In this document: positions 3,714 through 57,430 of the stretch, in pieces
Layout: the number at the start of each line of letters is the position of its first letter
Position numbering within the stretch: position 1 is the first letter of the stretch
DNA from: an uncultured Candidatus Saccharibacteria bacterium
Lineage (GTDB): Bacteria > Patescibacteriota > Minisyncoccia > Phycocordibacterales > UBA1550
Reading direction: 5' to 3'
NCBI GenBank assembly: GCA_964642305.1
Contig: CAZXOE010000005.1
Span: 13,369-77,368 of the forward strand
DNA: 64,000 nt
Notes under the pieces: generated by a model
What the model was told of the DNA's origin: nothing
The model's database searches: none
The model's input: only the letters and a program-made list of their open reading frames with translations
Translations under genes and position numbers: made by a program

Positions 3714-4322
3714 TTATTTTACCTTGTCAAAGTGTTCAAAGAGTAACGGCAAACCTACAATGAGAACAATAAAAAGGATAATAATTGCTCCTAGTGCAAA
3801 AAGGTGTAAAAAACTACTTGGGAAAAATATCTGCCTTAGCTCCTTGAATGTTTTTGGGGTCGGCTTTTCATGGTCTAGCAACAAGCCGACTGCGTAACCT
3901 TGTATAATTAGATCATATTTCAAAATAAAGGCAGCGACGATAACAGTTACAAAATTCGTAAAAATAAGGCTTTCTAAAATGAAGTCATTATAAAAAGCGA
4001 AACCAAAATAAACCAGGACGAATACCACAACCACTCCGCCTAAAATTTCCCTCCATTTGTTTTCAGAATCCTCGCCAAAATTTTTTCCCATTTCAGTTTT
4101 TTCCCTAATTTGGTTTTGAATATTTGCATTGCCATATTTAATTGAAAATAATCCCCAAAAAATCATTGTGCACAAAAGTATGGAGAAGTAAAAAATCTCT
4201 TCACCTGATGATGCTGAATAATAAAAAAGAGCTGTGAGGACAAGCACAGGAATACTTTCAAGAGCAAAAAGGAAAGCTGTTATTAGGGTACTCGATTTAT
4301 TATTTGGATTACTGAAAAACAT
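3714..4322 (-). CDS. Hypothetical polytopic membrane protein
   Basis: 202 aa with about 6 hydrophobic helices. Confidence 0.45.
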   Translation of the reverse strand: MFFSNPNNKSSTLITAFLFALESIPVLVLTALFYYSASSGEEIFYFSILLCTMIFWGLFSIKYGNANIQNQIREKTEMGKNFGEDSENKWREILGGVVVVFVLVYFGFAFYNDFILESLIFTNFVTVIVAAFILKYDLIIQGYAVGLLLDHEKPTPKTFKELRQIFFPSSFLHLFALGAIIILFIVLIVGLPLLFEHFDKVK

Positions 4323-4423: not shown

Positions 4424-5779
4424 CTACCCAATAAACGTAAGCGCCTTGCCTTTCTGCCCCGCTCTTCCGGTACGGCCGATGCGGTGCACATAGTCATCAT
4501 AGGTTTCAGGAATATCAAAGTTGATAACGTGCGATACGCCGGCAATATCAAGACCACGAGCAGCAACGTCTGTTGCAACGAGAATCTGCGCCATACCTTT
4601 TTTGAATGTATCTAGGGCGCGCTGACGCTGACCTTGATTTTTATCTCCATGAATCGACTGCGCTTTGAAACCTTTTTTACCAAGAGCCACCGAAAGCTTT
4701 TCTACACCGTGCTTTGTACGTCCGAAGATGAGAACTTTCTTAAATTCTGGCTGAATCAAAAGGTCGTGAAGCACCTCAAGCTTGTCCTCACCCGCTTTGA
4801 TTTTCACGACATCCTGCTCCACGTTCTTTGAAGTGTCTTGAGTCTTCACCGAAACCATCACCGGCTCCTTGAGAAAATCTTTAATGAGCACAGCAATCTC
4901 TGGTGAGAGTGTCGCTGAAAAGAAAAGTGTATGACGTTCCTTTGGCATAAGCGCAAGCATATAACGCATATCATGAATAAATCCCATGTCCAGCATTCTG
5001 TCTGCCTCATCCAAAACTACTGATTTGAATTCTGCGAGGTTGATGCACTTGCGTTCAATCAAGTCCTTTATACGTCCTGGTGTGCCAATAATAAAGTTAT
5101 GCTGATAGCGAAGGTCGGAAATCTGACGACCAATAGCCGCGCCACCAACGCAACACACCGAGAAAATCTTGAAGCCTTTTACAAAGCCTTTGAGTTCCAT
5201 TTCAATCTGCTGAGCGAGCTCGCGTGTTGGAGCCATCACAATCACCTTCTCCTTTGGATTTGCGAGGACTTTGTTGATAAGCGGAATAAGAAACGCGGCT
5301 GTCTTACCAGTACCTGTATTTGAAATACCCACAAGATCGTGTCCGTGCAAGATGTGCGGAATAACGCGGTCCTGAATAGGAGTTGGCGCTTCGTATCCTT
5401 TCGCAAGAATATTTGCCTTCAAACGCTCGTCGATTATGAAGTCCCTGAACAAGTGTTCAGGAGTAAAAACAACTGCTTCTTCGGTAATGACTGTTTTATT
5501 AATAAATTTTGAGATATCGATGTGCTGACCCTTTCTTGGGCCGCGCTTCCCACCTCCCCTACTAGAGCCTCCACGTGACGCGTTGAAAGAGCGTCCCAAA
5601 GGAGGACGAGAAGAAAAAGAGCGTGCGCCTGAAGGACGAGCACTTGAGTGAGTACCAGAGCCTCGGCTTGAGGACGAGCGTGGAGATGAGCTCGATGACC
5701 CACTTGTGCGTGGTCGTGACGAGCTCGAATGAGGACGGCCTGACCCAGCACCCCTACTAAATGTTTTTTTATGTTCCAT
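4424..5779 (-). CDS. DEAD-box ATP-dependent RNA helicase with an N-terminal S/R/G-rich low-complexity extension of about 95 aa
   Basis: Q motif GYEAPTPIQ, motif I GTGKTAAF, PTRELA, DEAD, SAT, HRIGRTGRAG. Confidence 0.9.
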   Translation of the reverse strand: MEHKKTFSRGAGSGRPHSSSSRPRTSGSSSSSPRSSSSRGSGTHSSARPSGARSFSSRPPLGRSFNASRGGSSRGGGKRGPRKGQHIDISKFINKTVITEEAVVFTPEHLFRDFIIDERLKANILAKGYEAPTPIQDRVIPHILHGHDLVGISNTGTGKTAAFLIPLINKVLANPKEKVIVMAPTRELAQQIEMELKGFVKGFKIFSVCCVGGAAIGRQISDLRYQHNFIIGTPGRIKDLIERKCINLAEFKSVVLDEADRMLDMGFIHDMRYMLALMPKERHTLFFSATLSPEIAVLIKDFLKEPVMVSVKTQDTSKNVEQDVVKIKAGEDKLEVLHDLLIQPEFKKVLIFGRTKHGVEKLSVALGKKGFKAQSIHGDKNQGQRQRALDTFKKGMAQILVATDVAARGLDIAGVSHVINFDIPETYDDYVHRIGRTGRAGQKGKALTFIG

Positions 5780-6093
5780 ATATTGTTCTAAAAGGCCTAC
5801 TAACGCAGGCTTTAATTAATTCTTCGGTACCCCTTTTCCTCAAAATCATTTCCGGCAGTAGTCAAAAAATTAGGCTACGACTTTGAGAAAATTCCTTACC
5901 TTATGCTTATAAGCTTCGTATTTTTCTCCTCGTCTCGCCACAATTTTTTTGCTCCTACCGGAAGCATTTTGTGGAAACGGGGTGAATTCTCTGAAAGCCC
6001 TTGTGTGTTGCGAAGAATGTGCTTTTAGGACAACCCCTTTCGGGTGAAACCCGAGACAAAAACTCTATGAGATGAAGTTATAACAAGTATAAA

Positions 6094-6465
6094 CTATTTA
6101 GGCTTTTTTGTCAAATTTTGTATATTCCTCTCGATTTTTTCTGATATAAGAAAAAGTCTCCTCTCTACTTCATTAAAGACTTCTTCATTTCTCCTTTTTA
6201 TAGTGCCTTCTGTTATTTTTATTGCATTCATCCAATCAATGAGATTCCTTTGATATGTCGCAATATATTCTATATCAGTTGTGTCACCATCGTTGAGCTT
6301 TTTAAGAACTGTATCAAAGATTGGCTCTGTTATAGAAAGTTGCCCTCTAATTTCATCCACACTTAAGCGGACATTTGTTCCTTCGAGTGTGGAATTGTGC
6401 TCTGGACTGTCAGCATTATTAGCATTTTCAAAACTAAATTGTTCCATTTCAATAGTATAACCCAT
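6094..6465 (-). CDS. Hypothetical protein
   Basis: 123 aa ORF with no recognisable motif. Confidence 0.35.
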   Translation of the reverse strand: MGYTIEMEQFSFENANNADSPEHNSTLEGTNVRLSVDEIRGQLSITEPIFDTVLKKLNDGDTTDIEYIATYQRNLIDWMNAIKITEGTIKRRNEEVFNEVERRLFLISEKIERNIQNLTKKPK

Positions 6466-6531
6466 ACACTAAAAAACAAGAACCGCAGACAATTAATTGC
6501 CTGCGGTTAATATTTACTAAAATCAAAGTGC

Positions 6532-7344
6532 TTATGCACGCAACCCTTCACGCACCATTTGCCAAACAAAAGCTATCCCAACAAGAAGATTAAACTGCTG
6601 ACTGACAGTATCGACATTATGACTTGAAAGCTGGCAGCCTCTATCGCCAAAATCTCTTGGCGCAGTCCCTAAACATGCGCAATTACCGCGTGTGTTCATA
6701 TGCAATACACCATTATCACGCAACCGTACCACAAAATCACCATGCCAAGACTTGCAATGAAGCTGCCCTTCAACATGGGGCTGAAAAAAGTGCGCCTTCA
6801 TTGCTTCAATTGCTCTTTCAAGGTCAATATTACTACCGAGCGATTCAAGATACTTGCGTGCTTGCGTAGAGACATACAGTTGGAGTCCTGCACCATGGAA
6901 ATGTCTTGGCTCTTGCGATAAAAAAGTTTCTACGACAAAAAGTTGAGCAGGGCTTCCTTGTTCCGCTTCCACGTTTTGCTCGTCTTCTTCGTGGAGCAAA
7001 TTTTGCAAGATGAACAAAATACTGGCAAAAGTGCCTCCAAGGTCTCGCATTTGAGCAACAGGCTCCACCGCGTTGCTTTCATCAACAAACGCTGGTACCT
7101 CGATACATACAAAACCATCGAGACTCTTTGATACTCTGGCGCAACCATACCAGCCAAACGAGCCACCAAAAATGGACGGCGGAACATACTCCTGCCCAAG
7201 TCGTGAAGCATAGTGCGTTCTGACTCCTGTGAGATTCACAAATTTAAGCCAATATTCAAGGGTCACAAAAATCTGAAAATGCATACCACTAAAGCCAAGA
7301 TGATAGACTTCTGGCAACTTTTTACCCCGTACTAATGGAAACAT
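6532..7344 (-). CDS. Hypothetical protein; the gene is noticeably more GC-rich than its surroundings
   Basis: 270 aa ORF. Many antisense ORFs arise in the track here, which is consistent with elevated GC. Confidence 0.4.
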   Translation of the reverse strand: MFPLVRGKKLPEVYHLGFSGMHFQIFVTLEYWLKFVNLTGVRTHYASRLGQEYVPPSIFGGSFGWYGCARVSKSLDGFVCIEVPAFVDESNAVEPVAQMRDLGGTFASILFILQNLLHEEDEQNVEAEQGSPAQLFVVETFLSQEPRHFHGAGLQLYVSTQARKYLESLGSNIDLERAIEAMKAHFFQPHVEGQLHCKSWHGDFVVRLRDNGVLHMNTRGNCACLGTAPRDFGDRGCQLSSHNVDTVSQQFNLLVGIAFVWQMVREGLRA

Positions 7345-7421
7345 GATTCCCTCCTCAATAAAGAATTGTCTATGTTGATACTACGTAAGATGGCGGTAGA
7401 ATGCAAGGATGGCTATTTATC

Positions 7422-7490
7422 CAAATCCAGCACCTCGTCTATGCGAATCTTGCTTAATAACACTGGTACGTGTAAGACGAGGGGGAATGA
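7422..7490 (-). pseudogene. Displaced remnant copy of the 3' end of the ABC-F gene (encodes ...LVLHVPVLLSKIRIDEVLDLDK*)
   Basis: 29 of 30 nt identical to 8182-8211; reverse-complement translation matches the C-terminus of the 8173..9645 protein. Confidence 0.7.
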
Positions 7491-7546
7491 CTTGATATCA
7501 TTTATCCTATTATTAATTGGATTTGCTACGATACCCACGTGCTTTA

Positions 7547-8152
7547 TTAGAGATCTTTCCACTGTTTGATATGTGCGATTACAGTCCGAAGTTTCTCAAC
7601 TCTGTCATGTTCTGACATGGCTGAAGCAAGGTCAGCCTCACGTTTGAGCGACGCAAGATTATGCCCAAGCGAAGTCTGCAGCGAGTCAAATGCGGCTTCT
7701 ATGCGCCGAGCCTCCCCTAGTACTTCTTGTACCCTTGTCTCGTCCTCAGCGTTATCAGTCAGCCTTGATCGGAGAGCTCTCACTGTGGAACGTGATTCTG
7801 AAATCTTGGCATTAATTTTGTCGTAATCATCGGGCTTGAGGTGAGCTTCGCTAAGAGCAATACGCCAGAACTCCCTGAAGAATGCATCAGCGTTTTCAAT
7901 CAAAACATCACATCTGTTGAGCGAACTCAAGGTTGTTTCGGCATCCATACTCTTTTCTAATCGCTGTTGATCAAGTCGATTTCTGTAGTTTAACCAAAGA
8001 GTGAAGAGAGAGACTATGAGCGACACAGTCGCAAGTGCGAGAAAATAGTGTTCAAGGGTATCTATTTCAAACTCCCACACAACAAAAACCACGGTAACAC
8101 CCGCGAACACAGTCAGTGTCCCGACTATCCACAGAACTATTTTTGTTAGCAT
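7547..8152 (-). CDS. Hypothetical membrane protein (2 TM) with a C-terminal coiled coil; sole cargo of the repeat-bounded insert
   Basis: 201 aa with two N-terminal hydrophobic helices. Confidence 0.45.
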   Translation of the reverse strand: MLTKIVLWIVGTLTVFAGVTVVFVVWEFEIDTLEHYFLALATVSLIVSLFTLWLNYRNRLDQQRLEKSMDAETTLSSLNRCDVLIENADAFFREFWRIALSEAHLKPDDYDKINAKISESRSTVRALRSRLTDNAEDETRVQEVLGEARRIEAAFDSLQTSLGHNLASLKREADLASAMSEHDRVEKLRTVIAHIKQWKDL

Positions 8153-8172
8153 GTTGATAAATTAAGTATACC

Positions 8173-9645
8173 CTACTTCCCCAAATCCAGCACTTCGTCT
8201 ATGCGAATCTGATGCACGAATTCAGGCACGTGAGAAACGAGAATCATAGCGCCCTCATATTGACTGAGTGCTTTTGCAATAACTGGCAAATGGCGAAAGT
8301 TGATATGGTTTGTTGGTTCGTCTAAAATTAGTAACCCTGGTTTCTCAAGTACAAGCTGTGCAAAAGCCACGAGCCCCTTTTGCCCCTCTGAAAGACTGCC
8401 AATCTTTGTATAGATGACATCTGATGTGATGAGGAAACTTGCGGCAACGGCGCGCATACGCTCCTCATCAAGCTTGCCGTCCACCGCCTGTGCCGCACGC
8501 GCGAGTGATTGATATACAGTGTCATTGAAATCCAACGTAGAGAAGTCTTGGCGGTAATATCCCACACGAACACCCTCAGCAATCTTCGCACCTTTTGCTT
8601 TTCCTGTTGCAATTGATTCAAGGAGAGTGGACTTGCCAATACCGTTTGGGCCAGCGAGCAAGAGATGAAACTTTTTCTTAAGTGAGAGTTTTATTTTCTT
8701 TTCAACTGGCTTGTGATTTTTTAACACAGAAAATGATGAGATGTTCAAAAGCTCCCCAGTAAGTTCGGGCTGTGATGGAATAGTAAACGCACGAATAGTT
8801 TTGTCTTCCTTGCGAATATCCACTTTCGCCTCTTCCATCTCCTCTGCTTTTTCACGCATACGCTTTGCAACCATACGCATCTGTCCACCCTTCATCGCAA
8901 AGAAGTTTGCCTTGTCTTTGTTTGCTTGAATCTCTTTCGCGAGTTGCGCATTCTTCATATTTTCTTTTTCAATCTGCGCGGTGATTTGCTTTACCACAGC
9001 GAAATAGTCGCCAACATAGTTTTCAATCTTGCGGGTATAAATATTTAAATAGAGCACGCCTTCGGTAAACGAGTTCAAAAACTCCGCATCGTGAGAAATA
9101 ACGATAACTGTTTTTTTGTATTCTTTTAGAAAATCGGTGAGGTGCGCAATGCCTGCCTTATCGAGGTTATTGGTTGGCTCATCAAGAAGAAGTACGTCTG
9201 GATCCTGAATGAGCGCAGAAGCAAGAAGGAGGCGCGCCTGCTGACCACCGGAAAAAGATTTGATGATTCGCTCGTGCATTTTTTCGTGTCCTTTCAAGTT
9301 CACCACCTCAAGCACCTCGTCTATTTTAGGATCAAGATCGTAGATTTTTTTACTGAAACATTTTTCAAAAAATTCTCTTACCGTGAGCTCAAGCTGATCG
9401 CGAGGAACAACCTGCTTTGAGATAGCGATGCTTATCCCTTTTCCAATGTGAATGTCTCCATCCTCGGGCTTGTTTGCGCCTGTGATGAGCGCAAAAAGGG
9501 ATGACTTGCCAGCGCCGTTTTGCCCCATGAGTGTTAGCTTTGCTCCGCGACGCACAGCAAAAGACACATCATCCAAGATGGGTTTATTGTGCCCGTATTC
9601 AAACGATACATTTTCGAATCGTACGATGACTTCTCCTTGTGCCAT
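8173..9645 (-). CDS. ABC-F family ATPase with two tandem ABC domains
   Basis: Walker A GQNGAGKSS and GPNGIGKST; signatures LSGGQQ and LSEGQK; Walker B LLLDEPTN and LILDEPTN. Confidence 0.85.
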   Translation of the reverse strand: MAQGEVIVRFENVSFEYGHNKPILDDVSFAVRRGAKLTLMGQNGAGKSSLFALITGANKPEDGDIHIGKGISIAISKQVVPRDQLELTVREFFEKCFSKKIYDLDPKIDEVLEVVNLKGHEKMHERIIKSFSGGQQARLLLASALIQDPDVLLLDEPTNNLDKAGIAHLTDFLKEYKKTVIVISHDAEFLNSFTEGVLYLNIYTRKIENYVGDYFAVVKQITAQIEKENMKNAQLAKEIQANKDKANFFAMKGGQMRMVAKRMREKAEEMEEAKVDIRKEDKTIRAFTIPSQPELTGELLNISSFSVLKNHKPVEKKIKLSLKKKFHLLLAGPNGIGKSTLLESIATGKAKGAKIAEGVRVGYYRQDFSTLDFNDTVYQSLARAAQAVDGKLDEERMRAVAASFLITSDVIYTKIGSLSEGQKGLVAFAQLVLEKPGLLILDEPTNHINFRHLPVIAKALSQYEGAMILVSHVPEFVHQIRIDEVLDLGK

Positions 9646-9726: not shown

Positions 9727-10068
9727 CTACTCTTCCTTGCGTCGCAGATCCCCTCGGCCCCAATAAGTAAGTTCTCCGTTTGAAAGATTTGCTGCAAAAT
9801 CTTCAAGGGAGAGCTCCTGTGCCTCAACTTTACCAAGGATGCCATAACCGAAAAAGTCACTTTCTGTTTTTCCACAGACAGTGCAAACCCTTAGTCGCGC
9901 ACGCCCCGTGCCAACATTTGTAAACCGCTCGGGAGATTCAATTACCGTGCCGACGTGTTGGCAACGCTCCTGCATTTCGGCATAGAGGGCAGTTCTTTCT
10001 GTCGCGAGTGCTTCGATTTCATCATCTATCACAGCAACTCTTCTCTTACTCTTGTCCAAATCATACAT
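9727..10068 (-). CDS. Hypothetical protein
   Basis: 113 aa ORF. Confidence 0.35.
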   Translation of the reverse strand: MYDLDKSKRRVAVIDDEIEALATERTALYAEMQERCQHVGTVIESPERFTNVGTGRARLRVCTVCGKTESDFFGYGILGKVEAQELSLEDFAANLSNGELTYWGRGDLRRKEE

Positions 10069-23225: not shown

Positions 23226-24077
23226 TTACTTCCAGTCTACTGATATTGCTATGCTAAAAATCAGAAGAATTATGATCGAGTAGACAAACATCCTGCGCGC
23301 CCAAATTTTGTCGTTTGCTGAATAGAATCCACTTGCTGAAAGACTGAGCCAACCAAAACCAAACACAATCATTACTAAAAAATATGCGTACCCGGCGTAC
23401 CCAAATACTGGAAGCGCGAATAATGCCATCACAAATAGCGCAACATAAATCAATGTCTGCAGTTTGGTGATTTGAATTCCTTTTTTTACGGGGAGAACCG
23501 GGATTCCTGCTTTTTTATAATCTTCTAATCTATAGATGGCAATCGCAAACGAATGTGGCATTTGCCAGAGCGCGAGAATGAAAAACAAAATCACTGCGCC
23601 AAGGTCAATGCTTCCGCTCACCGCCAAATAGCCAACTACTGGAGGCATAGCTCCTGAAATACTACCAACTATAGTTCCGTGCGTTGAGGTGCGCTTGAGC
23701 CACCTACTGTACACAACAACATACACAAAGAGGCCGAGAATTGCCGCAAGTACCGCGAGAAGATTCGTATAAAAATATAAGATGAGAAGACCTAAAATCG
23801 CGAGAACCTTTCCAAAAACGAGCGCGTTTCGTGGAGAAATTGTCCCCATCACCAATGCGCGAGTTTTTGTACGCTCCATAAGTCCGTCTATGTCGCGGTC
23901 AATGTAGTTGTTCATCACACATCCAGAGGCAACCACGAGCGAAAGTCCTGCGAGTGTCGCGAGCATTAGCCACAAATCAATGTTTTTTCCCGAGGCAAGT
24001 AAAAAACCAGCAACAACAGTAATCGCATTGCCACTAATAATCCCCGGCTTGGTGAGTTGGTAATAGTCTTTAATCAA
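23226..24077 (-). CDS. cyoE: Protoheme IX farnesyltransferase (heme O synthase)
   Basis: UbiA-family motif NNYIDRDIDGLMERTKTR; sits downstream of cyoABCD. Confidence 0.85.
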   Translation of the reverse strand: MIKDYYQLTKPGIISGNAITVVAGFLLASGKNIDLWLMLATLAGLSLVVASGCVMNNYIDRDIDGLMERTKTRALVMGTISPRNALVFGKVLAILGLLILYFYTNLLAVLAAILGLFVYVVVYSRWLKRTSTHGTIVGSISGAMPPVVGYLAVSGSIDLGAVILFFILALWQMPHSFAIAIYRLEDYKKAGIPVLPVKKGIQITKLQTLIYVALFVMALFALPVFGYAGYAYFLVMIVFGFGWLSLSASGFYSANDKIWARRMFVYSIIILLIFSIAISVDWK

Positions 24078-24104
24078 ATTAGTAATGATACAGTTCGATA
24101 AAAT

Positions 24105-24377
24105 CTACTTCAAGGAAATCACCTGAATGCCTTTTTCTTGTATATCTTCCAACGGCCAAAATGCTGTCAATTCGTCAATTTTCCACCTGCCGACGTATCC
24201 AACTTTCTTTTCTATTTCTCTACCAGTATAGTTTTTTGTTATTGGGTCCCATTCCTTAAGGAGCAGATTGTCTCCTTCCTCAATATCAAAATCATTGAGG
24301 CGTAGCTCAAAAGTCTTTTTGTTCTCAAGTATTTGTTGAAAATATTCTGGCCAAACTTTTTTCTCTATTTTTTTCAT
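24105..24377 (-). CDS. Small ASCH/DUF3850-like protein inserted between cyoD and cyoE
   Basis: 90 aa; WPEYFQQILENKKTFELR resembles DUF3850 (recalled from memory). Confidence 0.4.
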   Translation of the reverse strand: MKKIEKKVWPEYFQQILENKKTFELRLNDFDIEEGDNLLLKEWDPITKNYTGREIEKKVGYVGRWKIDELTAFWPLEDIQEKGIQVISLK

Positions 24378-24383
24378 AATAAT

Positions 24384-24761
24384 TTACTGCGGAATATATC
24401 CCTCGTTTGAATTTGTGGGGGTCGCGTTCATCATATTGTAATTTAGATTTGCCATAACCCAAAGCGACCCAACGACAAGAATAGCAACGATGATAATTGT
24501 AAAAGTAAGGACGATTATATTCCACTGCGGTTTTGATTTTTTGCTTAAATGAAGAAAGAATATCACCTGCACCAAGAGTTGTGCGACACCAAAAAGAACA
24601 ACTGCCATAACTAAACTTTGCTTTCCAAACATATGATTGACAACAATAAAATATGGGATAAGCGTGAGTATTACAGACAGCGCAAACCCAGTCACGTAAG
24701 AGCGCATCGCAAAGCGACTAGCCTCGTATTGTTCATCAATTACTTTAAAATCATTTTTCAT
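24384..24761 (-). CDS. cyoD: Cytochrome o ubiquinol oxidase subunit IV
   Basis: Three-TM small subunit downstream of cyoC. Confidence 0.7.
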   Translation of the reverse strand: MKNDFKVIDEQYEASRFAMRSYVTGFALSVILTLIPYFIVVNHMFGKQSLVMAVVLFGVAQLLVQVIFFLHLSKKSKPQWNIIVLTFTIIIVAILVVGSLWVMANLNYNMMNATPTNSNEGYIPQ

Positions 24762-24765
24762 ATCA

Positions 24766-25362
24766 TTAAATAGCGCCCATTAGGTATACGAATGTGAAAA
24801 TAAATATCCACACAATATAAAGGAAGTGCCAGAATATGCCTAGGTTTGATATTTTGCCTATCGTCCTCACCGTTAACCCTCTTCTCAGCACCTGCGCAAG
24901 TATGCTCCACATCCAAACAAGTCCTGCTGTCACATGAAGTCCGTGCGTGCCAACTAGCGCAAAAAATCCCGACAAAAATCCGCTCACCTGCCAACTGCTT
25001 CCACTCTGATAAAGCTTCACGAACTCAGACAATTCCATTCCAATAAATGTTGCTCCGAACAAAAATGTCACAACCAACCAAAGAACCACTTTGTCCTTCT
25101 CGTTCTTATGATGCGCGTAAAACGACGCCAGTCCGTATGTGAAACTGCTTGCGAGAAGGACGAACGTTTCCGCAAGGACAAACGGCATACTAAATATGTC
25201 ACTTGCTGACGGCCCACCAAAGGTATTGTTGTGAAGCACAGTATATGTTGCAAAAATCGCGCCAAAAAGCAGAGCATCGCTCATAATATAGACCCAGAAA
25301 CCAAAGAGCGCCTTTGATTCTCTCTTACTTGTTTCTCTTGTGTTTAAAATTTCTGTAGTCAT
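24766..25362 (-). CDS. cyoC: Cytochrome o ubiquinol oxidase subunit III
   Basis: Heme-copper oxidase subunit III pattern; five TM. Confidence 0.8.
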
Positions 25363-27332
25363 AGTAATTGTAATTTTCTCTGTGGGTTTTTTGCTTCTAT
25401 TTTTGCGACCTCGTCCGCTGTTATCACATACTCAGTATCATAATCAAAAGAACGAACAATGATGAGCAAAACAACGCCAACTGCTCCTGCTACAGCAAGC
25501 CACCAAATATGCCATACTAAACCAAATCCAAAAAGAAATGCTGATAGTGCAACATAAAGCCCCATCGCTGTATTTTTTGGCATCTCAATATCCTCATAAT
25601 GAGCTTGCTCTTGCTTGGCTGTGCCGTGCTTCATATCCCAAAACGCGTGGCGTCCATGAACGGTTGGAATAATAGCAAAATTATAAAAAGGTGGCGGGGA
25701 TGCTGTAGACCATTCCAGTGTCCTGCCGTCCCACGGGTCGCCAGTCGTATCCAGATTGTGTCTTCGGTCACGTATACTAATAATGAGTTGTAATATCTGG
25801 AGCGCGACACCAATACCAATAATCACGACACCTGCCATAGAAATATAGAGCATCGGCTCCCATCCAGTCCCAGCATCTATGTGACTCAAGCGACGCGTCA
25901 TCCCCATTAGGCCTACAATATAAAGTGGAACAAATGTCACAAAGAAGCCGATTATCCAGTGCCAAAAAGCAGCCTTGCCCAGCCGTTCGCTCAACTTAAA
26001 GCCAAAAATCTTTGAAAACCAATATGTGAGACCAGCAAAATATCCGAACACCACACCACCAATAATAGTATTGTGAAAATGAGCAATTAAGAACAGGCTA
26101 TTGTGAAACTGAAAATCAGCAGCAGGAACAGATAGGAGTACGCCCGTCATTCCGCCGATAGTAAATGTAAAAATAAAACCAACCAACCAGAGCATCGGTG
26201 AAGCAAATACGATACTCCCGCGAAACATTGTGAAGAGCCAATTGAAAACTTTTACACCAGTAGGGATAGCGATGATCATCGTCATAATACCAAAGAACGC
26301 ATTTACGTTTGCGCCCGCGCCCATTGTGAAAAAGTGATGCACCCAAACCACAAATGACAAAAATGTAATAGCGATGGTCGCGTATATCATTGATGTATAC
26401 CCAAAAAGTTTCTTGCGTGAGAAAGTTGATACGACTTCAGAGAAGATACCAAATGCGGGCAATATTAGGATATAAACCTCTGGATGCCCCCACGCCCAAA
26501 TGAGATTCACATACATCATAGCGTTACCGCCAAAGTCCGATGTAAAAAAGTGCATTCCAAGAAGTCGGTCAAGGGATAGCATACCGAGTGTTGCTGTGAG
26601 AATTGGAAAAGTAATAATAACAAGCGCCATTGACGCAAAAACTGTCCACGTAAAAACTGGCATTCTCATAAGCGTCATCCCATGGCAACGCATCATAAGG
26701 ATAGTCACAAAAAAGTTTATACCCGACATCAAACTACCTACACCCGCTATTTGTAACGCCCAAATATAATAGTCTACACCTACGCCAGGGCTATACAATA
26801 TTCCAGAAAGTGGCGGATATGCGAGCCATCCAGTCGCAGCAAACTCTCCCACGACAAGTGATAGATTCACGAGCACTGCTCCAGCAACCGTGAACCAAAG
26901 ACTGAGCGAGTTAAGAAAAGGAAAGGCGACATCACGCGCGCCTATTTGTAGTGGCACAGCCAAGTTTATGAGCCCAAACATTAACGGCATAGCGACAAAG
27001 AAAATCATAATCACGCCGTGCGCTGTGAATATCTGGTCGTAATGCTCTGGTGGTAAATAGCCAAGTGAGTCACCGATTGACAACACCTGCTGTAAACGCA
27101 TCATCACTGCGTCAGAAAATCCGCGTAAAATCATTACGAAGGCGAGAATAATATACATCACACCTATTTTTTTGTGGTCTAAGGACGTGAGCCATTCTTT
27201 CCAAAGCCACTTCCATCGTTTGAAATAAAACAAAAGGCCGATAATACTGACACCAGCAACAGCCATAAAAATACCAGCTCCAACTGTAAGTGGTTCGTGA
27301 GGAAATGCTCCAAGTGTAAGGTTGCCAAGCAT
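25359..27332 (-). CDS. cyoB: Cytochrome o ubiquinol oxidase subunit I
   Basis: [17 protein letters not shown] and WAHHMF-type His ligands; 657 aa. Confidence 0.9.
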
Positions 27333-27344
27333 AAAATTATTATA

Positions 27345-28241
27345 TTACATGCGCATCTCAGGCATGGACATAGGAACTGACATTTCTCTAGGTATCATAT
27401 ATTTCATTATTATTTTATCATAAAGACTAACTTCAGTGGACGAATAATATGCAACGTTATTATTTCTGCTTTTTTCTGCAAGTTTTTCGTATTCATTAAA
27501 ATTTAAAGTGTCTGGTGACTGTTGTACAATTTGTAACCATTGATCAAATTCTTCCTGAGATGTCGCCTTTGCGATAAATTTCATTCCAGAAAAACCATAA
27601 CCACTATAGTTTGCAGACACTCCATTGTATTCTCCAGCCTCGTTCGCCATTAGATGAAGACTCGTATCCATTCCCGCCATAGCATATATCTGCCCAGCGA
27701 GTTGTGGAATCCAAAATGAATTCATTGGCGCGTCACCAGTGATTCTAAAATGAATAGGAGTATCAACAGGGAATGCTATAAAATTTACAGTTGCAATATT
27801 CTGCTCTGGGTAAATAAACAACCATTTCCACTCAAGTGCCACTACTTGTATCGTGATGGGTGGAATACTTGAATCAATAGGTTTGAATGGATCAAGCTCG
27901 TGGCTACTTACCCATGTCATCCTTGCAATAAATACAATAATTATTATTGGAATAGTCCACCAAATTATTTCAAGTGCATTATTGCTGTGCCAATCAGGAG
28001 TATATTTCGCTTTTGTGTTACTTGCGCGGTATCTCCAGGAAAAAACCGCGAGCATAATGAACACTGGAATGACCACAATTAACATTAGAAGTGTTGTCGT
28101 GACAATGAGATTCATCTCCGCGAGAGCAATAATGCCTTTTGGATTGAACACGCCCATATTGTGAGTGCTGATATAAACGTACAGAAACACAAAAAATACT
28201 AAAATAGCGACGAATAAAATCGCTCGCATATACTTTTTCAT
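27345..28241 (-). CDS. cyoA: Cytochrome o ubiquinol oxidase subunit II (quinol oxidase type, no CuA cysteines)
   Basis: NSFWIPQLAGQIYAMAGM...LHLMANEAG...GFSGMKF closely matches CyoA; lacks the CuA Cys motif. Confidence 0.85.
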   Translation of the reverse strand: MKKYMRAILFVAILVFFVFLYVYISTHNMGVFNPKGIIALAEMNLIVTTTLLMLIVVIPVFIMLAVFSWRYRASNTKAKYTPDWHSNNALEIIWWTIPIIIIVFIARMTWVSSHELDPFKPIDSSIPPITIQVVALEWKWLFIYPEQNIATVNFIAFPVDTPIHFRITGDAPMNSFWIPQLAGQIYAMAGMDTSLHLMANEAGEYNGVSANYSGYGFSGMKFIAKATSQEEFDQWLQIVQQSPDTLNFNEYEKLAEKSRNNNVAYYSSTEVSLYDKIIMKYMIPREMSVPMSMPEMRM

Positions 28242-41912: not shown

Positions 41913-44840
41913 CTAGAACATTCGGTACTTTATTTTTACAGAACTTCTAGCGCTACACGATGCGGAGCCTGCACCACCAGAGCCAGAGCATGTCCACATC
42001 CATGTCCCCCCATTATCAGAAGGGGTGGAATTACCAGCTGTTGTCGTACAAAGATTTGCAGTCGGCACTGTTGGTGTAGGAGTACCATGAGCGCTACCGC
42101 AAACGCCAGTGATATAACTTAAATTATAAACACGACATAGTGCGTTTGACCCTGTTCCACTATTATTTATTGCCATGCAACCCCATTCATAATACTGAGA
42201 TGTACCTGCTCCCGTAACTGCTGTAGGGGTACCATAGGAGCATAAGTTTGACGTAGGAGCTGTAAAAGAAGGAGTGTCCTCCGCGCTTCCGCACACGCCA
42301 TTTCTAGCAGTGGTGAACGAAACTTCTAGAGAATACCCTGTGCCATGCGAATTTGTTGCGTATCCACGCACGTAATATGTTGTTCCCTGCTGTAGCCCTG
42401 TTACGTTTATTGAATATGCTCCAAGTGTTGCTGGAGGCGCAGGTGTACAAGTTGCGCCGTTTGTATGACTAGGATTATTCATTATCCCATAGCAAACACC
42501 ACGCGCAGAAATTGATGGTGGGGTACGCTTGTGTAAATAAATCTTATTTTTTGGTGAACCTCCCTGGTAATATATTGATTTGCCATCTGGAGAAATTTGC
42601 ATTCCAGAAGTGAAAGAAGCAGAAGCACGGTTGTGCTCATACACAGGAGAAGTGGTGTCTATGCTTCCATCTGCTATACCTCTACGAAAAACAAAGATTT
42701 TGTCGAGAGATAGAAGATCACCAAACCCAAACCCGTAAACAGAATTTCCATCTGGAGATATTTTTATATTATCTATATTTCTACCTAAATTATAACTAGT
42801 TCCACCAGAAAGCAATCCTGTTGTTGTGTCGCGTGAGAACCTAGCTACCGCATTATAAATATTACCACCAATGTTAAGATAATCAGGATCATAAAATGGA
42901 TACACATATTTATCATCTGGTGAAACATAGACTTCCATGCTTGTAGGACGAGGCGCATCGGGGTAAAACACGAAAGTCCTGCCAGAAATCGTGCCAGTAA
43001 TTTGATTTCTAATGAACCTCCAAATCCTACTTGGAGGAGCACCTGATTCGTAATTTGCAGTATACAACGATTTACCATCTGATGAAAATGCGATATCACG
43101 CGCATACGCGGCCATAGTTGAAATATCAATAGTATTGCTCTCATTAGACAATGAACCATCAGCTAAATTTCGTGTACGCAATCTAAGCTTTCCCATGCTA
43201 GAAGTATCAGCAGATGTATATAAATGACTCCCGTCTGGAGATACAATAACCTCATGCGCTACATCAGTTGTTACGTAGGCAATCCTATTTGATAGTGTCC
43301 CATTATTTATATTCCTATCATATTTAACGATATATCTGCCCGTACCACCGGCAATAGAACACCCCGCATACACGTTCTTTCCGTCTGGTGATATAGTGAT
43401 AGGATTATTTATACCAATCGTGCAATTTCCTATATCATAGTTGGAAACATAGGTAAGCTCACCAGATTCATTTCTGTTGTATAAATATATCCCAGCTCTC
43501 TGGTTTGTTACATCGCCAATTGTTACTACATAAAAATGCTTTCCATCTGGCGAAGTAGCATTTGCTTGCAAACTTTCGTTAGTTGTTGCCAATGGTACAG
43601 TATACTCAATATATGGTTCCACCAGCTCCCCGCTGTAAGCTCCAAACGAGGTAACCTCCGCGCCGAGTGTTGCCGTGGTGGCTTTAATATATGTGCTTGT
43701 TGCGTTTATTACTGTAGGCAAAAGAGAAGTCTCTATGACATTTATGCTCGTCCATTCTCCGCAGTTGTTGTCTTCGGCTGTTGCAGGAGATTCAGTAATG
43801 ACACCTCCGCCAGCTGAAGCTGTTTTATCAGCGCACGACCTCACATAATACATACCACCTTCAGTAAATGTGTATGTTGTTGAAGATGCCACAGCGCTTG
43901 TGCCCGCGCCTAGAGCTGGCATTGTTTTAGGAGCAAGGTCGGTAATCGTGCCAGTCGTACTAGTAGCCACCTGAAAGAAATTTGGGAAACTCCCCCCAGT
44001 TGCCCCTGTGCCACTATTTGTTATGGCTGAATAAAAAAGTGTCGGCGAGTCAGTGATTACATTCACAGGGTACGAGGAACCCGCCGTGAGGTCTATATTT
44101 GTGGCTACATAGATACCATTAAAGGTAATCATACCACCAGAAGAAAGAGTGAGAGTTTCTGTTGCAGGTGTTGCGTATCCTGCAACATTCCCCCATGTTA
44201 TTGTGTATGTTCCTGTTGGCTTTGAGGTTGAAGTTTGAGAAGTGCCAGAGCCTGTGATTGTTGCTGGGCCAGTGATGGTCCAAGAGGATGAGATGTTTGA
44301 GGAGACGGATACGGTGCCGGTAGGAGAAGCAACTGTGATAAGGATACTAGAACTTCCGTCAAATCTAGGACTTAAATCATTAACCAGGCAGTCTGGGTCC
44401 TCTGCAGGACACCGTGGGTCACCAGCCCTTTTATAGTAGCTATCTAAATTAATAACATATGCGCCTGGAGTCATTGGAGCAGTAAGTACACCTGAGTGAA
44501 CCAATGTAACAGGATTAGGATTATACGGATGAGATAGAATATCTTCCATATTTTCTAAGTATGCATAATTCCCTTGAAGGGTCACGTAAATAGAATAATA
44601 ATAAAGAAGCTCTATTGGAATAAGTGTAGATAATGAACTGGTAAGATAAATATTTTCTCCTGGAGAAAATATTGTTTTGTTTATATTAACAGTGTAACTA
44701 TTTACATTAGTACCAAGGTAAGGATCTGTGCCCCAATAGGTTACCGCACCCACATCCTCAACTGCTACAATAAAAAACAATAAGGTAAGAAAAGTTGTTA
44801 AAAAGAATGACTTTGTTGTTTTTGTTAGTAGATTCTTCAT
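41913..44840 (-). CDS. Giant secreted surface protein: signal peptide, Ig-like domain shared with the 50058..51221 protein, YVTN-type beta-propeller repeats, Cys-rich C-terminus
   Basis: 975 aa. SPDGK/SSDGK..Y repeats. About 60 aa (SSSWTITGPATITGSGTSQTSTSKPTGTYTITWG) is near-identical to the paralog. Confidence 0.7.
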   Translation of the reverse strand: MKNLLTKTTKSFFLTTFLTLLFFIVAVEDVGAVTYWGTDPYLGTNVNSYTVNINKTIFSPGENIYLTSSLSTLIPIELLYYYSIYVTLQGNYAYLENMEDILSHPYNPNPVTLVHSGVLTAPMTPGAYVINLDSYYKRAGDPRCPAEDPDCLVNDLSPRFDGSSSILITVASPTGTVSVSSNISSSWTITGPATITGSGTSQTSTSKPTGTYTITWGNVAGYATPATETLTLSSGGMITFNGIYVATNIDLTAGSSYPVNVITDSPTLFYSAITNSGTGATGGSFPNFFQVATSTTGTITDLAPKTMPALGAGTSAVASSTTYTFTEGGMYYVRSCADKTASAGGGVITESPATAEDNNCGEWTSINVIETSLLPTVINATSTYIKATTATLGAEVTSFGAYSGELVEPYIEYTVPLATTNESLQANATSPDGKHFYVVTIGDVTNQRAGIYLYNRNESGELTYVSNYDIGNCTIGINNPITISPDGKNVYAGCSIAGGTGRYIVKYDRNINNGTLSNRIAYVTTDVAHEVIVSPDGSHLYTSADTSSMGKLRLRTRNLADGSLSNESNTIDISTMAAYARDIAFSSDGKSLYTANYESGAPPSRIWRFIRNQITGTISGRTFVFYPDAPRPTSMEVYVSPDDKYVYPFYDPDYLNIGGNIYNAVARFSRDTTTGLLSGGTSYNLGRNIDNIKISPDGNSVYGFGFGDLLSLDKIFVFRRGIADGSIDTTSPVYEHNRASASFTSGMQISPDGKSIYYQGGSPKNKIYLHKRTPPSISARGVCYGIMNNPSHTNGATCTPAPPATLGAYSINVTGLQQGTTYYVRGYATNSHGTGYSLEVSFTTARNGVCGSAEDTPSFTAPTSNLCSYGTPTAVTGAGTSQYYEWGCMAINNSGTGSNALCRVYNLSYITGVCGSAHGTPTPTVPTANLCTTTAGNSTPSDNGGTWMWTCSGSGGAGSASCSARSSVKIKYRMF

Positions 44841-44843
44841 TTA

Positions 44844-45320
44844 TTATTTTCTTAATACGCTAATACTCACCTGTGACTTCGCTGAATCTACATCGGAGTC
44901 ATAACTAATGGTCACATTAATATCATTACTTTCTTTTGTGCCATAGATAGAGGAAAGTTTTTCACTCTCGTATTTATTAGAAATATTCCACTGTTGTTTT
45001 TCAAAAAAACCAGTGTAGAGTGCGTAATTTTCTTTAACTGTTTTTGTGGAAAGAAAAACGATAGTGAGTTGCTTTTGACCAACATAATTCAAGCTATAGC
45101 TTTGTTTTAAATTTACCCCTTCCTCAACAGGTATATCTGTTGGAAAATCATTTGGTGCTTTTGCACCAAAATCTGTTCTTTTTGGCACTATATTTGTTGC
45201 AACATCATTTGTAGCTACATTTTTATTTTTTTCACTCCAAGAATACAGCAACAATGTAGCAACTACCAGTATGGCAATCCCAGATATGACAAGCAAGATA
45301 TTTCTATAATTCATTAACAT
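44844..45320 (-). CDS. Small membrane-anchored protein, paralog of 51218..51670
   Basis: 158 aa with an N-terminal TM; about 60% identical to the 150 aa paralog; lies 3 bp upstream of the giant protein gene. Confidence 0.6.
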   Translation of the reverse strand: MLMNYRNILLVISGIAILVVATLLLYSWSEKNKNVATNDVATNIVPKRTDFGAKAPNDFPTDIPVEEGVNLKQSYSLNYVGQKQLTIVFLSTKTVKENYALYTGFFEKQQWNISNKYESEKLSSIYGTKESNDINVTISYDSDVDSAKSQVSISVLRK

Positions 45321-45440
45321 TATTATACCCCCACACCTACTTTTTGCCTACTAGAGTTATCCACAAAGATAAATATATAAATGCGAATATAGTTTGTGAC
45401 TACAAAATCAATATGTAAAAGTAGGTGTGGGGGTGTACCC
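45321..45440 (-). promoter_or_regulatory. Second copy of the conserved upstream module: 17 bp inverted repeat CCCCCACACCTACTTTT / AAAAGTAGGTGTGGGGG plus TATAATAAT abutting the ATG
   Basis: First 25 nt are identical to 11999-12023. Confidence 0.5.
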
Positions 45441-45574: not shown

Positions 45575-45579
45575 ATTTG

Positions 45580-45654
45580 CGCGGTCGACCGGACTTGAAC
45601 CGGCAACCTCTCGCGTGACAGGCGAGTGCTACTAACCAGTTGAGCTACGACCGC
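45580..45654 (-). tRNA. tRNA-Asp (anticodon GTC)
   Basis: Acceptor GCGGTCG/CGACCGC, anticodon loop CTGTCAC, T-loop TTCAAGT, discriminator G. Confidence 0.8.
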
Positions 45655-46334
45655 AAATTCTTAAATTTGCCATATTTTTCAAACACAGCCTTCTTCCTAT
45701 CAAGAAAAAGCTTGTTCTTTGTATGACTTCTATGATTATACATAAAATCATAGAATTTCAAAGAGTCTTTTGTGCCAAACTGCAGACGGTAGCAATTTTC
45801 CTTTGGCTGGAAAATCGACCCTCCTTCAATGCCATAAATATTGAGCCTTTTGCGTATACTTTCTAAAAATACTTTTGAACACGAGGTTAATGCCACTTGA
45901 ATGGCAAGGCCTTGAGTTTCCCTCTCTTTATGAGTCACCCCAACCCAAACATTTCCATCACCATCAAAGTATCCTCTGACGAAATCAGAAAAATATTTTT
46001 GAGGGATGATTGGAACGACCAGATTTTTTGTTTTTCGCTCAGAGAAGCCAAGCTCTCTCAAATCCTCACACATCTCAATACTTCCAATCTGTAAACGATA
46101 AAGCGTGCTTTCATTTCCCCGCATAACACGAGTACTAATTTTGTGTTCCGACTGGATAGCTTTACGTATTTGCTCAAGAAGCTTTTTGTCAGTTATTTGA
46201 ATGCACCAAAATTGTCCACCTCGCTTGTTAACAGTAATGTACCCGTCAGCTGCAAAAAAACCTAGCACGTATGACATTTCTGGTGTCCATTTTTTAAAAA
46301 AACCTTTGTTTACTTTTTTTAATACTGGCACCAA
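45645..46334 (-). CDS. LAGLIDADG homing endonuclease (two motifs), free-standing; its 3' end overlaps the tRNA-Asp 5' end by 10 nt
   Basis: LGFFAADGY and RGYFDGDGN motifs. Confidence 0.8.
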   Translation of the reverse strand: MVPVLKKVNKGFFKKWTPEMSYVLGFFAADGYITVNKRGGQFWCIQITDKKLLEQIRKAIQSEHKISTRVMRGNESTLYRLQIGSIEMCEDLRELGFSERKTKNLVVPIIPQKYFSDFVRGYFDGDGNVWVGVTHKERETQGLAIQVALTSCSKVFLESIRKRLNIYGIEGGSIFQPKENCYRLQFGTKDSLKFYDFMYNHRSHTKNKLFLDRKKAVFEKYGKFKNLRS

Positions 46335-51221: not shown

Positions 51222-51670
51222 TTCTTTAATACACTAATACTCACCTGATCTCTTGTGATAGTAATGCTCATATCATTATTCCATTTTGTGCCATAGAGTG
51301 ATGACACGTTGTCGCTCTCATACTTATTAACAATACTCCAATTTTGTTTTTCGAGAAAATCAGTGTAGAGTGTGTAGTTTTCTTTGACTGTTTTTGCTGA
51401 ATCAAAAACTATCGTCATTTGTTTCTGTCCGACGTAATTCAAGCTATAACTCTGCTCAAATTTTGCACCATTCTCAATAGGTATATTTGTCGGAAAATCG
51501 GTTGGCACATTTGTTCCAAAATCTGTCCTCTGTGGCTCCTTTATAATTACATCTGTCTTCTCTAATACAGGTGCAGGAACCTTGCTTATGTTTTGCTTAT
51601 ACAAAAAAAGAGTGCCTACAACGAGAACAATGATACTGATAATAACTATTATTATATTTCTATAATTCAT
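51218..51670 (-). CDS. Small membrane-anchored protein, paralog of 44844..45320
   Basis: 150 aa with an N-terminal TM; overlaps the downstream gene by 4 nt. Confidence 0.6.
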   Translation of the reverse strand: MNYRNIIIVIISIIVLVVGTLFLYKQNISKVPAPVLEKTDVIIKEPQRTDFGTNVPTDFPTNIPIENGAKFEQSYSLNYVGQKQMTIVFDSAKTVKENYTLYTDFLEKQNWSIVNKYESDNVSSLYGTKWNNDMSITITRDQVSISVLKK

Positions 51671-51678
51671 TGCTTTTA

Positions 51679-54196
<2,518 letters not shown>

Positions 54197-56781: not shown

Positions 56782-56856
56782 TGTGTTATTTTACCCTAAA
56801 ACGTTTAGTACTCAAAACGTTCGGACGACTCGCAACTAGCGGTTTTAGCCACAAAA

Positions 56857-56906
56857 CAAAACACTCGCCGAGTGGCGAGTGTTTTGTTTTGTGGCTACCT
56901 ACAGGC
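56857..56906 (-). terminator. 23 bp-stem hairpin at the 3' end of the pilin gene
   Basis: AGCCACAAAACAAAACACTCGCC-GAGT-GGCGAGTGTTTTGTTTTGTGGCT. Confidence 0.7.
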
Positions 56907-57398: not shown

Positions 57399-57430
57399 TA
57401 TATGGATAATAACATAATCTTTATTTAAAC

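Follow-up and report, generated by a model that had tools for sequence, protein, structure and literature searches.

A repeated ABC-F gene end at a recurrent gene-capture site in Paceibacteria

Organization of the locus

Contig CAZXOE010000005.1 was analyzed over a stretch of 64,000 nucleotides (nt), called here the window, and positions given below refer to this stretch unless another locus, designated by an L number, is named. The window carries an intact gene encoding an ABC-F family ATPase, the 3' end of which is found a second time further downstream, behind a single gene encoding a protein of 201 amino acids (aa), p201. The genes in question all lie on the minus strand, in the order ABC-F, spacer, p201, gap, second copy of the ABC-F end (termed here the relic), p270, p123, and DEAD-box helicase (Table 1). 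Comparisons with other ABC-F loci show that this gene end is a recurrent gene-capture site across Paceibacteria, and suggest that the repeat in the window is probably the scar of a homology-driven capture event in a genome of 'Ca. Yonathbacteria'.

Table 1. Features of the ABC-F locus in the window (ORF, open reading frame; -, minus strand).
Feature	Coordinates	Strand	Basis or remark
ABC-F family ATPase gene, 490 aa, intact	8173..9645	-	ORF; two Pfam ABC_tran domains
Proximal repeat copy: last 22 codons and stop codon of the functional ABC-F gene	8173..8241	-	Alignment; 30-nt identity block 8181-8210
Spacer from ABC-F stop to p201 start, 20 nt	8153..8172	-	GGTATACTTAATTTATCAAC; without Shine-Dalgarno motif
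p201, 201 aa, sole gene between the repeat copies	7547..8152	-	ORF
Block about 75% identical in nucleotides to the compact single-gene unit of L081/L082	7513..8075	-	Boundaries approximate
Distal relic of the ABC-F 3' end	7413..7481	-	7413-7450 well kept; 7451-7481 decayed, LV-HVP motif still visible
p270, 270 aa, directly downstream of the relic	6532..7344	-	ORF; strong GAGGAGG ribosome-binding site
p123, 123 aa, last gene of the inserted block	6094..6465	-	ORF
Homology to the empty-site relative resumes	6086..6122	-	L213 5145-5267 aligns with window 6119-5983
DEAD-box helicase, natively next downstream of ABC-F in the closest relatives	4424..5779	-	ORF; synteny of relatives

The repeat of the ABC-F 3' end

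The two copies of the ABC-F end can be aligned without gaps over 69 nt (74% identity) and are in register, including both TAG stop codons. The best conserved part is a 30-mer, CCAAATCCAGCACTTCGTCTATGCGAATCT, which occurs exactly at 8181-8210 and with one mismatch at 7421-7450 (29/30), in agreement with the original prediction made on this DNA. The separation of the copies, put there at 750 nt, is in fact 760 nt from start to start, and the segment between them, rightly said to contain one 201-aa gene, extends from 7482 to 8172 and not from 7461. The degenerate similarity noticed at the same time over about 70 nt is true homology, since a hidden Markov model (HMM) of the tail, built on the last 78 nt of 70 ABC-F orthologues, matched the distal copy at model positions 10-78 (69 nt, E = 3.8e-11). 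The two encoded tails had also been read correctly: the genuine gene ends in HQIRIDEVLDLGK and the distal copy in SKIRIDEVLDLDK, each followed by the stop codon. An early tblastn match had suggested that the relic might extend to 44 aa; this was dropped, as the extra 22 residues add almost no identities, and the relic measures about 69-75 nt.

The relic is two-tiered: 34/38 nt are identical to the gene in its 3' part, as compared with 23/42 in its 5' part (Fisher p = 0.001). The last 38 nt still encode IRIDEVLDLDK followed by a stop, and in the 42-nt 5' tier the near-invariant ABC-F motif AMILVSHVPEFVHQ is corrupted to SFPLVLHVPVLLSK. The 30-mer is not a dispersed motif, no third copy being present in the 64 kb, and no comparable 3'-end repeat was found at the other gene ends within the window. 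None of 100 dinucleotide-preserving shuffles gave a match comparable to the 30-mer repeat. The repeat is not an assembly artefact, positions 7300-8300 being 100% identical in seven independent ENA/Logan assemblies from one and the same population.

The ABC-F gene and its tail

The best NCBIfam match of the ABC-F protein was with a ribosomal-protection-like ABC-F family, at 319 bits, which is under the 380-bit cut-off. Orthologues showing 67-95% identity occur in Paceibacteria / 'Ca. Yonathbacteria', and the closest of them (90-95%) are labelled 'Candidatus Yonathbacteria' or Parcubacteria. The protein sequence of the C-terminal tail, AMILVSHVPEFVxQIRIDE[VTI]LDLxK, hardly varies among 80 species representatives, although its synonymous sites vary freely. 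The window gene now ends GGG AAG TAG and the relic ends GAT AAA TAG, exactly like the functional gene of the relative L212; the relic therefore seems to be the displaced resident end, and the last codons of the present gene were probably supplied by incoming DNA. Both copies carry an unusual ATA isoleucine codon, which the relatives lack. Judged by eye, the ABC-F core shows only partial likeness to one arm of the dif (Xer) consensus.

The empty site and the genes stacked behind ABC-F

The closest relative, L213 (ABC-F 95% identical), has an empty site: its ABC-F stop codon is followed by 17 nt and then by the TTGACA...TATACT promoter and the DEAD-helicase leader, and this flank aligns to window positions 6119-5983 and 5821-5700. 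The window thus carries about 2.05 kb (8172 to about 6122) that are missing from L213, comprising p201, the relic, p270, and p123. A comparison of the ABC-F 3' flank among orthologues had been put forward as a check in the original prediction, and the empty site of L213 establishes that DNA was inserted. The 0.7-kb single-gene insert described there did not hold up as a bounded element, p270 and p123 following the relic and the native flank beginning only around 6120. The p201 segment would be the newest layer of a larger stack. An allele lacking p201, if one existed, would join the ABC-F end straight to CCATCCTTGCATTC.

The gene p270 was absent from every relative examined and had no match in the phage or plasmid collections; it may be an older layer of the same insertion stack. 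Homologues of p123 occur directly behind ABC-F in L216 (56% identity) and 3 kb downstream in L214. The last codons and the stop codon of p123 sit within the native promoter region of the DEAD helicase, where a promoter-like site, TTGACA-17-TATACT, is located at 6114..6086 (11/12 match). The leader of the DEAD-helicase gene (5780-6122, minus strand), about 300 nt long and placed behind this strong promoter-like site, is 77-80% conserved with L212 and L213, and had no Rfam family match.

The content of the interval between ABC-F and the DEAD helicase differs among the relatives. In the relatives with ABC-F identities of 90-94%, it holds a DUF3135 gene (L211, L212, and L215), a p123-like gene (L216), a gene of 196 aa (L217), or a gene of 166 aa along with others (L214). 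The ABC-F C-terminus itself was found to be rewritten in L211 (7461-7476; ...VLDIERV) and in the more distant L062 (7464-7503; ...LDLSPSSKAKAIDTF), the junctions in both cases falling within the last ABC-F codons without the conserved tail being regenerated. The interval behind ABC-F is a hypervariable hotspot with variable junction positions.

On the other side of the gene, a 113-aa ORF without any family match (9727-10068, minus strand) lies between an SDR gene and ABC-F. The SDR gene directly abuts ABC-F in L211, L212, L215, and L217, and L216 has an unrelated 95-aa gene in this place. Since the relatives differ between the SDR gene and ABC-F, the upstream side also looks variable.

The p201 gene and its homologues

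A gap of 65 nt separates p201 from the distal copy. On the other side of p201, at the spacer, the relative L216 resembles the window in having GGTATACT immediately after its ABC-F stop codon. The two transmembrane segments previously ascribed to p201 are in keeping with the single 201-aa ORF found here and with its two N-terminal hydrophobic segments (about residues 1-27 and 35-56, from the hydropathy profile). The AlphaFold2 model is an all-helical bundle (pLDDT 80) with no significant Foldseek match in the PDB, and no match was obtained in Pfam, NCBIfam, PADLOC, or the phage or plasmid collections. As far as these searches and the model go, p201 may be a membrane-anchored helical protein. 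The ratio of nonsynonymous to synonymous substitution rates (dN/dS) with respect to its two homologues, 0.23-0.25, indicates that p201 is a real gene under purifying selection.

The p201 family is tiny, with three members among 5.8 billion proteins; a profile search on 1.84 billion cluster representatives retrieved eight proteins at E <= 0.001, including P0003, which was one of the query sequences. The two homologues (L081 and L082) show 66-70% amino-acid and about 75% nucleotide identity with p201 and occur in unrelated high-GC contexts. They are compact units (L081:86-733 and L082:172-808) inside high-GC DNA, on short Logan contigs from SRR22387790 and SRR22388079. The similarity is restricted to the gene plus about 15 nt upstream and about 115 nt downstream, and the corresponding block in the window spans from about 15 nt 5' of the homologues' ATG to about 25-35 nt beyond the stop codon. 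The start of the homologues, ATGATGGAC, reads AAATAGATAC in the window, where the start codon has been lost, and the window ORF is 29 codons longer than those of the homologues, gaining a hydrophobic helix.

Recurrence of the scar at ABC-F in other Paceibacteria

A total of 217 ABC-F loci were compared, including 80 genome loci scanned at the protein level and with the HMM, and metagenome contigs scanned with a degenerate pattern (at least 120 loci, among the matches listed). Three of the 80 genome loci (L023, L024, and L054) were found to have a second ABC-F tail further downstream, as were at least three metagenome loci among the 120 matches listed (L096, L169, and L193). In these six loci, the cargo enclosed between the tails is unrelated from one event to another, L169 and L193 sharing one cassette: the insert amounts to 1.6 kb with a 301-aa gene in L023, 2.7 kb with a diversity-generating retroelement in L024, 1.0 kb with two small genes in L054 (repeat copies 42/42 identical), 3.5 kb with an N6/N4 DNA methylase, a PD-(D/E)XK nuclease, and the candidate defence pair PDC-M43A/B in L096, and 2.7 kb with an O-methyltransferase and a pyridoxal phosphate-dependent enzyme in L169 (tails at 7142-7269 and 4451-4578). 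L193 has the cargo of L169 and, beyond it, another cassette (DUF3307) and another ABC-F tail, so that three tails (reverse strand, 3886-3924, 1169-1208, and 405-445) delimit two cassettes in tandem; copies 2 and 3 are also alike for about 27 nt past the stop codon. The ABC-F end is therefore a site of gene capture that recurs across Paceibacteria.

Inserts without this scar were also found at the site. L041 and L015 carry single-gene inserts without any repeat, and L002 shows a remnant of about 19 nt. In the clade including L023 and L024, where the sister loci L031, L027, L022, and L056 have empty sites, it is the interval between ABC-F and a gene encoding an RluA-like pseudouridine synthase that has a varied accessory content, as does the interval between ABC-F and the DEAD helicase in the clade of the window. 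When 200 loci were compared with themselves by BLAST, the ABC-F end dominated the results. The few possible cases at other genes include L046:7461-7538 / 7968-8047, which consists of a convergent small gene and a terminator, and L131:2325-2396 / 3838-3909, which is the end of a 200-aa gene; both could equally be tandem paralogues.

Some of the cargoes deserve a description of their own. Between the ABC-F stop codon and the displaced tail of L024 (CAZADR010000004.1, 7461-10138) lies a complete diversity-generating retroelement, with a 229-aa target gene containing a variable repeat (8122-8238), a template repeat (8621-8737) 81% identical to it, bAvd, and a reverse transcriptase whose ORF continues into the ABC-F tail and terminates at the stop codon of that tail. 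Genes for related reverse transcriptases are located just upstream of ABC-F in L027 and L067. The segment L096:60-3530 forms a small defence islet (PDC-M43 A, E = 4e-70; B, E = 5e-107).

Junctions and concerted evolution

Across independent cases, the repeat measured 0, about 19, 36, 39, 41, about 62, about 66, about 70, about 100, and 128 nt, and its right edge was located anywhere from the stop codon (stop+0) to stop+27. The insert ends showed no common motif.

In the L023/L024 clade, ABC-F shares its last 35 nt with the convergent RluA-like gene on the other strand (L031:1517-1551, L027:7427-7461, L022:7427-7461, and L056:7430-7464), the RluA-like tail TFLDQVLRQS being antisense to the ABC-F end QIRIDEVLDLEK. 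Because of this dual coding, the overlap segment is almost invariant as DNA. In the occupied genomes L023 and L024, the RluA-like gene overlaps the distal copy (L023:4431-4465 and L024:10104-10138), which means that the 39-41-nt 'relic' is there a working gene end. As the two genes overlap by 35 nt, an insert sparing both of them must duplicate at least 35 nt, and the C-terminus of RluA is indeed altered where the overlap was not duplicated (L041, L002, and L015). The two sharp left edges of L023 and L024 are consequently explained by selection and not by enzyme specificity. The distal copy in these two genomes has the clade's native sequence and native flank, and the proximal copy is identical to it over 23 nt, after which there are 6/16 and 4/18 differences, respectively, all of them synonymous. 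This pattern of identity followed by synonymous differences suggests that the crossover occurred inside the repeat and that the last codons came from another functional ABC-F allele. The layout of the window is parallel, with 29/30 identity followed by three differences in the last 9 nt.

The L169 and L193 loci are collinear, with 83% identity across ABC-F, the cargo, and the relic, which indicates that the insertion predates the split between them. The internal copies of L169 are 94.5% identical, as against 83.6% between the orthologous gene ends of L169 and L193 and 74% between their orthologous relics, and the copies within each genome share lineage-specific codons (VAK vs VEK). Since the copies within L169 are closer to each other than the orthologous ones are, gene and relic seem to keep recombining, by gene conversion or by repeated recombination. 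Continued recombination of this kind might also account for relics that are fresh at their 3' end and decayed at their 5' end, as in the window, copy 2 of L193, and L024.

Search for recombinases and for an origin in mobile elements

Pfam searches on the cargo proteins of L023, L024, L054, L096, L169, L193, L041, L002, and L015 yielded no recombinase, nor did those on the window ORFs tested, among which no tyrosine recombinase was found. A scan with regular-expression motifs for tyrosine and serine recombinases was also negative, and no recombinase was detected within 6 kb of ABC-F in the 217 loci. The degenerate pattern of the ABC-F core had no match in 2.9 million viral contigs. A phage or plasmid origin was rejected on these grounds and on those of the lack of any match of p201 and p270 in the phage and plasmid collections. 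Also considered and rejected was the idea that crossovers occur preferentially through an unusually conserved stretch, the last 36 nt of the gene being no more conserved as DNA than the sequence upstream.

A type IV pilus cluster is present in the window at 55969-63120 (minus strand), with a prepilin peptidase, a PilC-like T2SSF protein, and two T2SSE ATPases. The type IV pilus is the machinery proposed for DNA uptake in Patescibacteria, which have been reported to carry competence and homologous-recombination genes (PMC12455944).

Origin of the repeat

The explanation that we favour, with somewhat more than even confidence, is that the repeat is the scar left when a gene was captured by homology at the ABC-F hotspot. 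The incoming DNA would have carried p201 and a stretch homologous to the 3' end of ABC-F, and a crossover with the resident end inside the 30-nt identity block would have left the gene ending with the incoming codons GGG AAG TAG. The resident end GAT AAA TAG would have been pushed beyond p201, where it would survive as the relic ahead of the older p270 and p123. New genes would in this way stack at the ABC-F end and push the older ones away, an order of layers that the arrangement of the locus suggests. This might have taken place by a Campbell-type single crossover of a circular molecule, or by means of a homologous anchor combined with an illegitimate or short-homology join after the uptake of DNA. 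Ongoing recombination or gene conversion would then refresh the 3' part of the relic as its 5' part decays, and a cassette lying between tail repeats could pop out and re-enter by the same route. Insertion into the ABC-F 3' end with regeneration of that end, as originally proposed, is well founded on the empty site of L213, the intact gene, and the relic ending like the gene of L212. The participation of a RecA-type enzyme and of transformation would fit the type IV pilus genes and the literature cited above, which lend them circumstantial support, and the donor would have been a molecule bearing a functional ABC-F end.

Several observations weigh against this explanation. With 23-30 nt, the identity blocks are barely as long as RecA-type recombination requires, and the last 36 nt of ABC-F are, as stated above, not especially conserved among orthologues. 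When the ABC-F genes of L023 and L024 were tested for mosaicism, in search of a 3' segment of foreign origin, there was no resolution, all the species being about 75-79% identical to each other. No circular or excised form, donor, or empty allele in the same population was seen in the seven identical assembled contigs. The left edges of the repeats are clustered at -36, -38, -39, and -41 nt from the end of the stop codon in four lineages, which would fit a site-specific enzyme, and only the -39 and -41 cases are explained by the overlapping RluA-like gene. Lastly, XerD/Hin tblastn probes gave no hit in 1.8 Mb of ABC-F neighbourhoods, but these probes were used without a positive control, and since the recombinase search covered 64 kb of this genome, a recombinase acting in trans from beyond it is possible.

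These points lead to the main alternative, in which the last 30-38 nt or so of ABC-F are an attB core and the cargoes entered as small circles with an attP mimicking the gene end, catalysis being due to a recombinase of the tyrosine or serine type, the gene for which would lie in another part of the genome or on a helper element since lost, and the decayed 5' part of the relic being the old P arm of the element. We regard it as distinctly less probable, although it accounts for a good deal: a direct repeat of which one copy completes the gene, which is also the case in known integrations that regenerate a gene end; sharp and similar left edges (-36 to -41 nt) in four lineages; short identity blocks; a concentration of differences 3' of the identity block, seen in L023, L024, and the window, that a crossover within a core would be expected to produce; and the tandem cassettes of L193. 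The two-tier relic fits an attP arm as well as it does the homology-driven model. It is hard, however, to reconcile a site-specific reaction with repeats of 62-128 nt and right edges up to stop+27, with inserts lacking any repeat and junctions that fall inside the last codons, or with a core that varies synonymously between lineages and element ends that share no motif. The core is moreover absent from the viral contigs searched, and the overlapping gene accounts for half of the four sharp edges. The searches for a recombinase were negative for all 10 inserts, for the 217 loci up to 6 kb from ABC-F, and for the window ORFs tested. A site-specific integrase working on a fixed att core, which the original prediction implied, thus finds no support, since the length of the repeat and the position of the junction vary among cases.

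Two other explanations do without any link between the distal copy and the arrival of p201, or give that copy a purpose of its own. If the ABC-F end had been duplicated locally, by slippage or in tandem, or if the distal copy were what is left of a second, mostly deleted ABC-F paralogue, with insertion and decay as later and independent events, the copies would be each other's closest relatives in the 30-nt block, as their shared ATA codon (lacking in relatives) indicates, and the 42/42 identity of the L054 copies would fit as well. A tandem duplication should nevertheless have doubled the cargo too, and p270 is unrelated to p201; the relic has decayed very unevenly along its length (p = 0.001), past about 70 nt there is no detectable trace of a second ABC-F body, and in all seven lineages showing the pattern it is this very gene end that is repeated, with foreign cargo between the copies, all of which makes a local origin improbable. 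It is likewise improbable that the distal copy owes its persistence to a function in regulation or termination, as a small ORF, or as the end of an overlapping gene. Such a role does exist in L023 and L024, where the distal copy forms the 3' end of the convergent RluA-like gene with its 35-nt overlap, and in the window the last 12 codons of the relic are intact and an 8-bp inverted repeat folds inside it (z = -2.3). The window relic, however, is overlapped by no convergent gene and its antisense frame encodes no RluA-like tail; an Rfam search across 5600-8400 detected no structured RNA, no terminator-like site was found at the relic, and its 49-aa ORF has no family match. Nor is the 128-nt relic of L169 overlapped by any gene.

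Comparison with known systems

The homology-driven capture proposed here has its closest parallel in C-terminal displacement. Arrays of displaced C-termini (Rhs, orphan modules of contact-dependent inhibition, and effector-immunity modules of the Vibrio type VI secretion system) have been proposed to arise by homology-facilitated illegitimate recombination (Kirchberger et al., 2017, PMC5361080, where Jackson et al., 2009 is cited). In both situations, a conserved gene is the homologous anchor, the incoming DNA brings a new 3' end along with cargo, and the old 3' end is orphaned downstream of a complete gene, as in the window and the six other loci. Repeated events make arrays (L193, and the p201/relic/p270/p123 stack), the junctions vary, and no integrase is involved. 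In C-terminal displacement, however, each new C-terminus brings another toxin domain, and an immunity gene of selective use stays with the orphan, whereas here the regenerated end keeps IRIDEVLDL-x-K, where x is G in the gene and D in the relic, the cargo consists of unrelated accessory genes, and the anchor is a housekeeping ABC-F of the translation-factor type in Patescibacteria.

The ABC-F loci also resemble other kinds of insertion sites. At icd in E. coli, e14 and phage 21 insert into the 3' end of a protein-coding gene by means of an integrase and regenerate that end. These insertions share with the ABC-F cases the direct repeat of a gene 3' end, the mostly synonymous end codons supplied by the element, and the native end at the far junction. 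They are tens of kb long, with their own integrase next to att and a fixed core, whereas the ABC-F inserts measure 0.76-3.5 kb, contain no recombinase, and have repeats of 0 to 128 nt. Integration hotspots between core genes are known to turn over by recombination in the flanking core genes. The ABC-F/DEAD and ABC-F/RluA intervals are similar in that they hold differing accessory genes, including defence systems; unlike in hotspots as usually described, a copy of the end of the left core gene is present, and gene end and relic show concerted evolution in some of the loci.

As in integron arrays, small, mostly single-gene, promoter-poor units seem to be stacked at a fixed site with the newest nearest to it. 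The p201 homologues add a further likeness: the 5' end of their unit (GTTAGAGCC / GCTAGAGCC) is the reverse complement of a 9-mer about 45 nt past the stop codon (GGCACTAAC / GGCTCTAAC), the L082 unit terminates at GTTAAGG, and the pair resembles integron core and inverse-core sites, the downstream fold being no better than that of shuffled sequence. The window differs from integrons in having no intI, attI, or attC-like fold, and its repeats are a coding gene end and not attC: the homology to the p201 unit ends before the putative R'' box, the DNA downstream is the ABC-F relic, and no tyrosine recombinase that could be an intI was found among the window ORFs tested or beside ABC-F in the loci searched. 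Integron cassette insertion was rejected for these reasons, the neighbours of the L082 unit not being array-like either, and was kept as a lead to the origin of the cargo. The phenomenon combines known kinds of events, namely hotspot turnover, C-terminal displacement, and gene-end-regenerating integration, and is new in the form that it takes here.

Significance of the ABC-F site

Patescibacteria have tiny genomes with few recognisable mobile elements, and yet they exchange genes. The ABC-F locus is a concrete example, at the sequence level, of where and how accessory genes enter them: across the class, cargoes as different as defence systems, a diversity-generating retroelement, enzymes, and membrane proteins have entered at this site time and again, and the direction of the events and their order can be read from the scars. 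Its interest is raised by this recurrence across Paceibacteria, by the lack of recombinases in the searches made, by the tandem arrays, and by the concerted evolution of gene and relic. If the process is recombinase-free, the duplicated gene end would be a portable homology arm, providing competent streamlined bacteria with a simple route of capture, and genes acquired recently could be spotted in metagenome-assembled genomes by a second ABC-F tail, a practical marker. Should the process depend on a recombinase acting in trans, this enzyme would have the ABC-F tail as its attB and could be traced through it.

A bolder and rather doubtful reading is that Paceibacteria use the ABC-F 3' end as a docking site for recombinase-free cassettes, which would make it an integron-like platform without an integrase. 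Each cassette would carry a mimic of the last 12-40 ABC-F codons as a portable homology arm, with which host recombination could capture it after uptake in any lineage, whatever the downstream synteny. The cassette would regenerate the gene, stack in arrays, and stay excisable through the direct repeats, and the relics would be refreshed with each transfer, which might explain both their concerted evolution with the gene and their 5' decay.

Other features of the window

A LAGLIDADG homing-endonuclease ORF of 229 aa (45645-46334, minus strand) is located within a tRNA gene cluster, its 3' end overlapping tRNA-Asp (45579-45654) by about 10 nt. Haem-copper oxidase genes occupy 23226-28241 on the minus strand (COX2-like, 27345-28241; COX1, 25359-27332; COX3-like, 24766-25362), with a UbiA prenyltransferase gene (23226-24077) beside them; a respiratory module of this kind is unexpected for Paceibacteria. 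A block of about 1.2 kb is duplicated about 6.4 kb apart (44110-45329 vs 50602-51685, 77-88% identity), in which the 5' part of the gene for a 975-aa beta-propeller protein corresponds to a 387-aa ORF and a 158-aa ORF to one of 150 aa, the upstream regions being duplicated as well.

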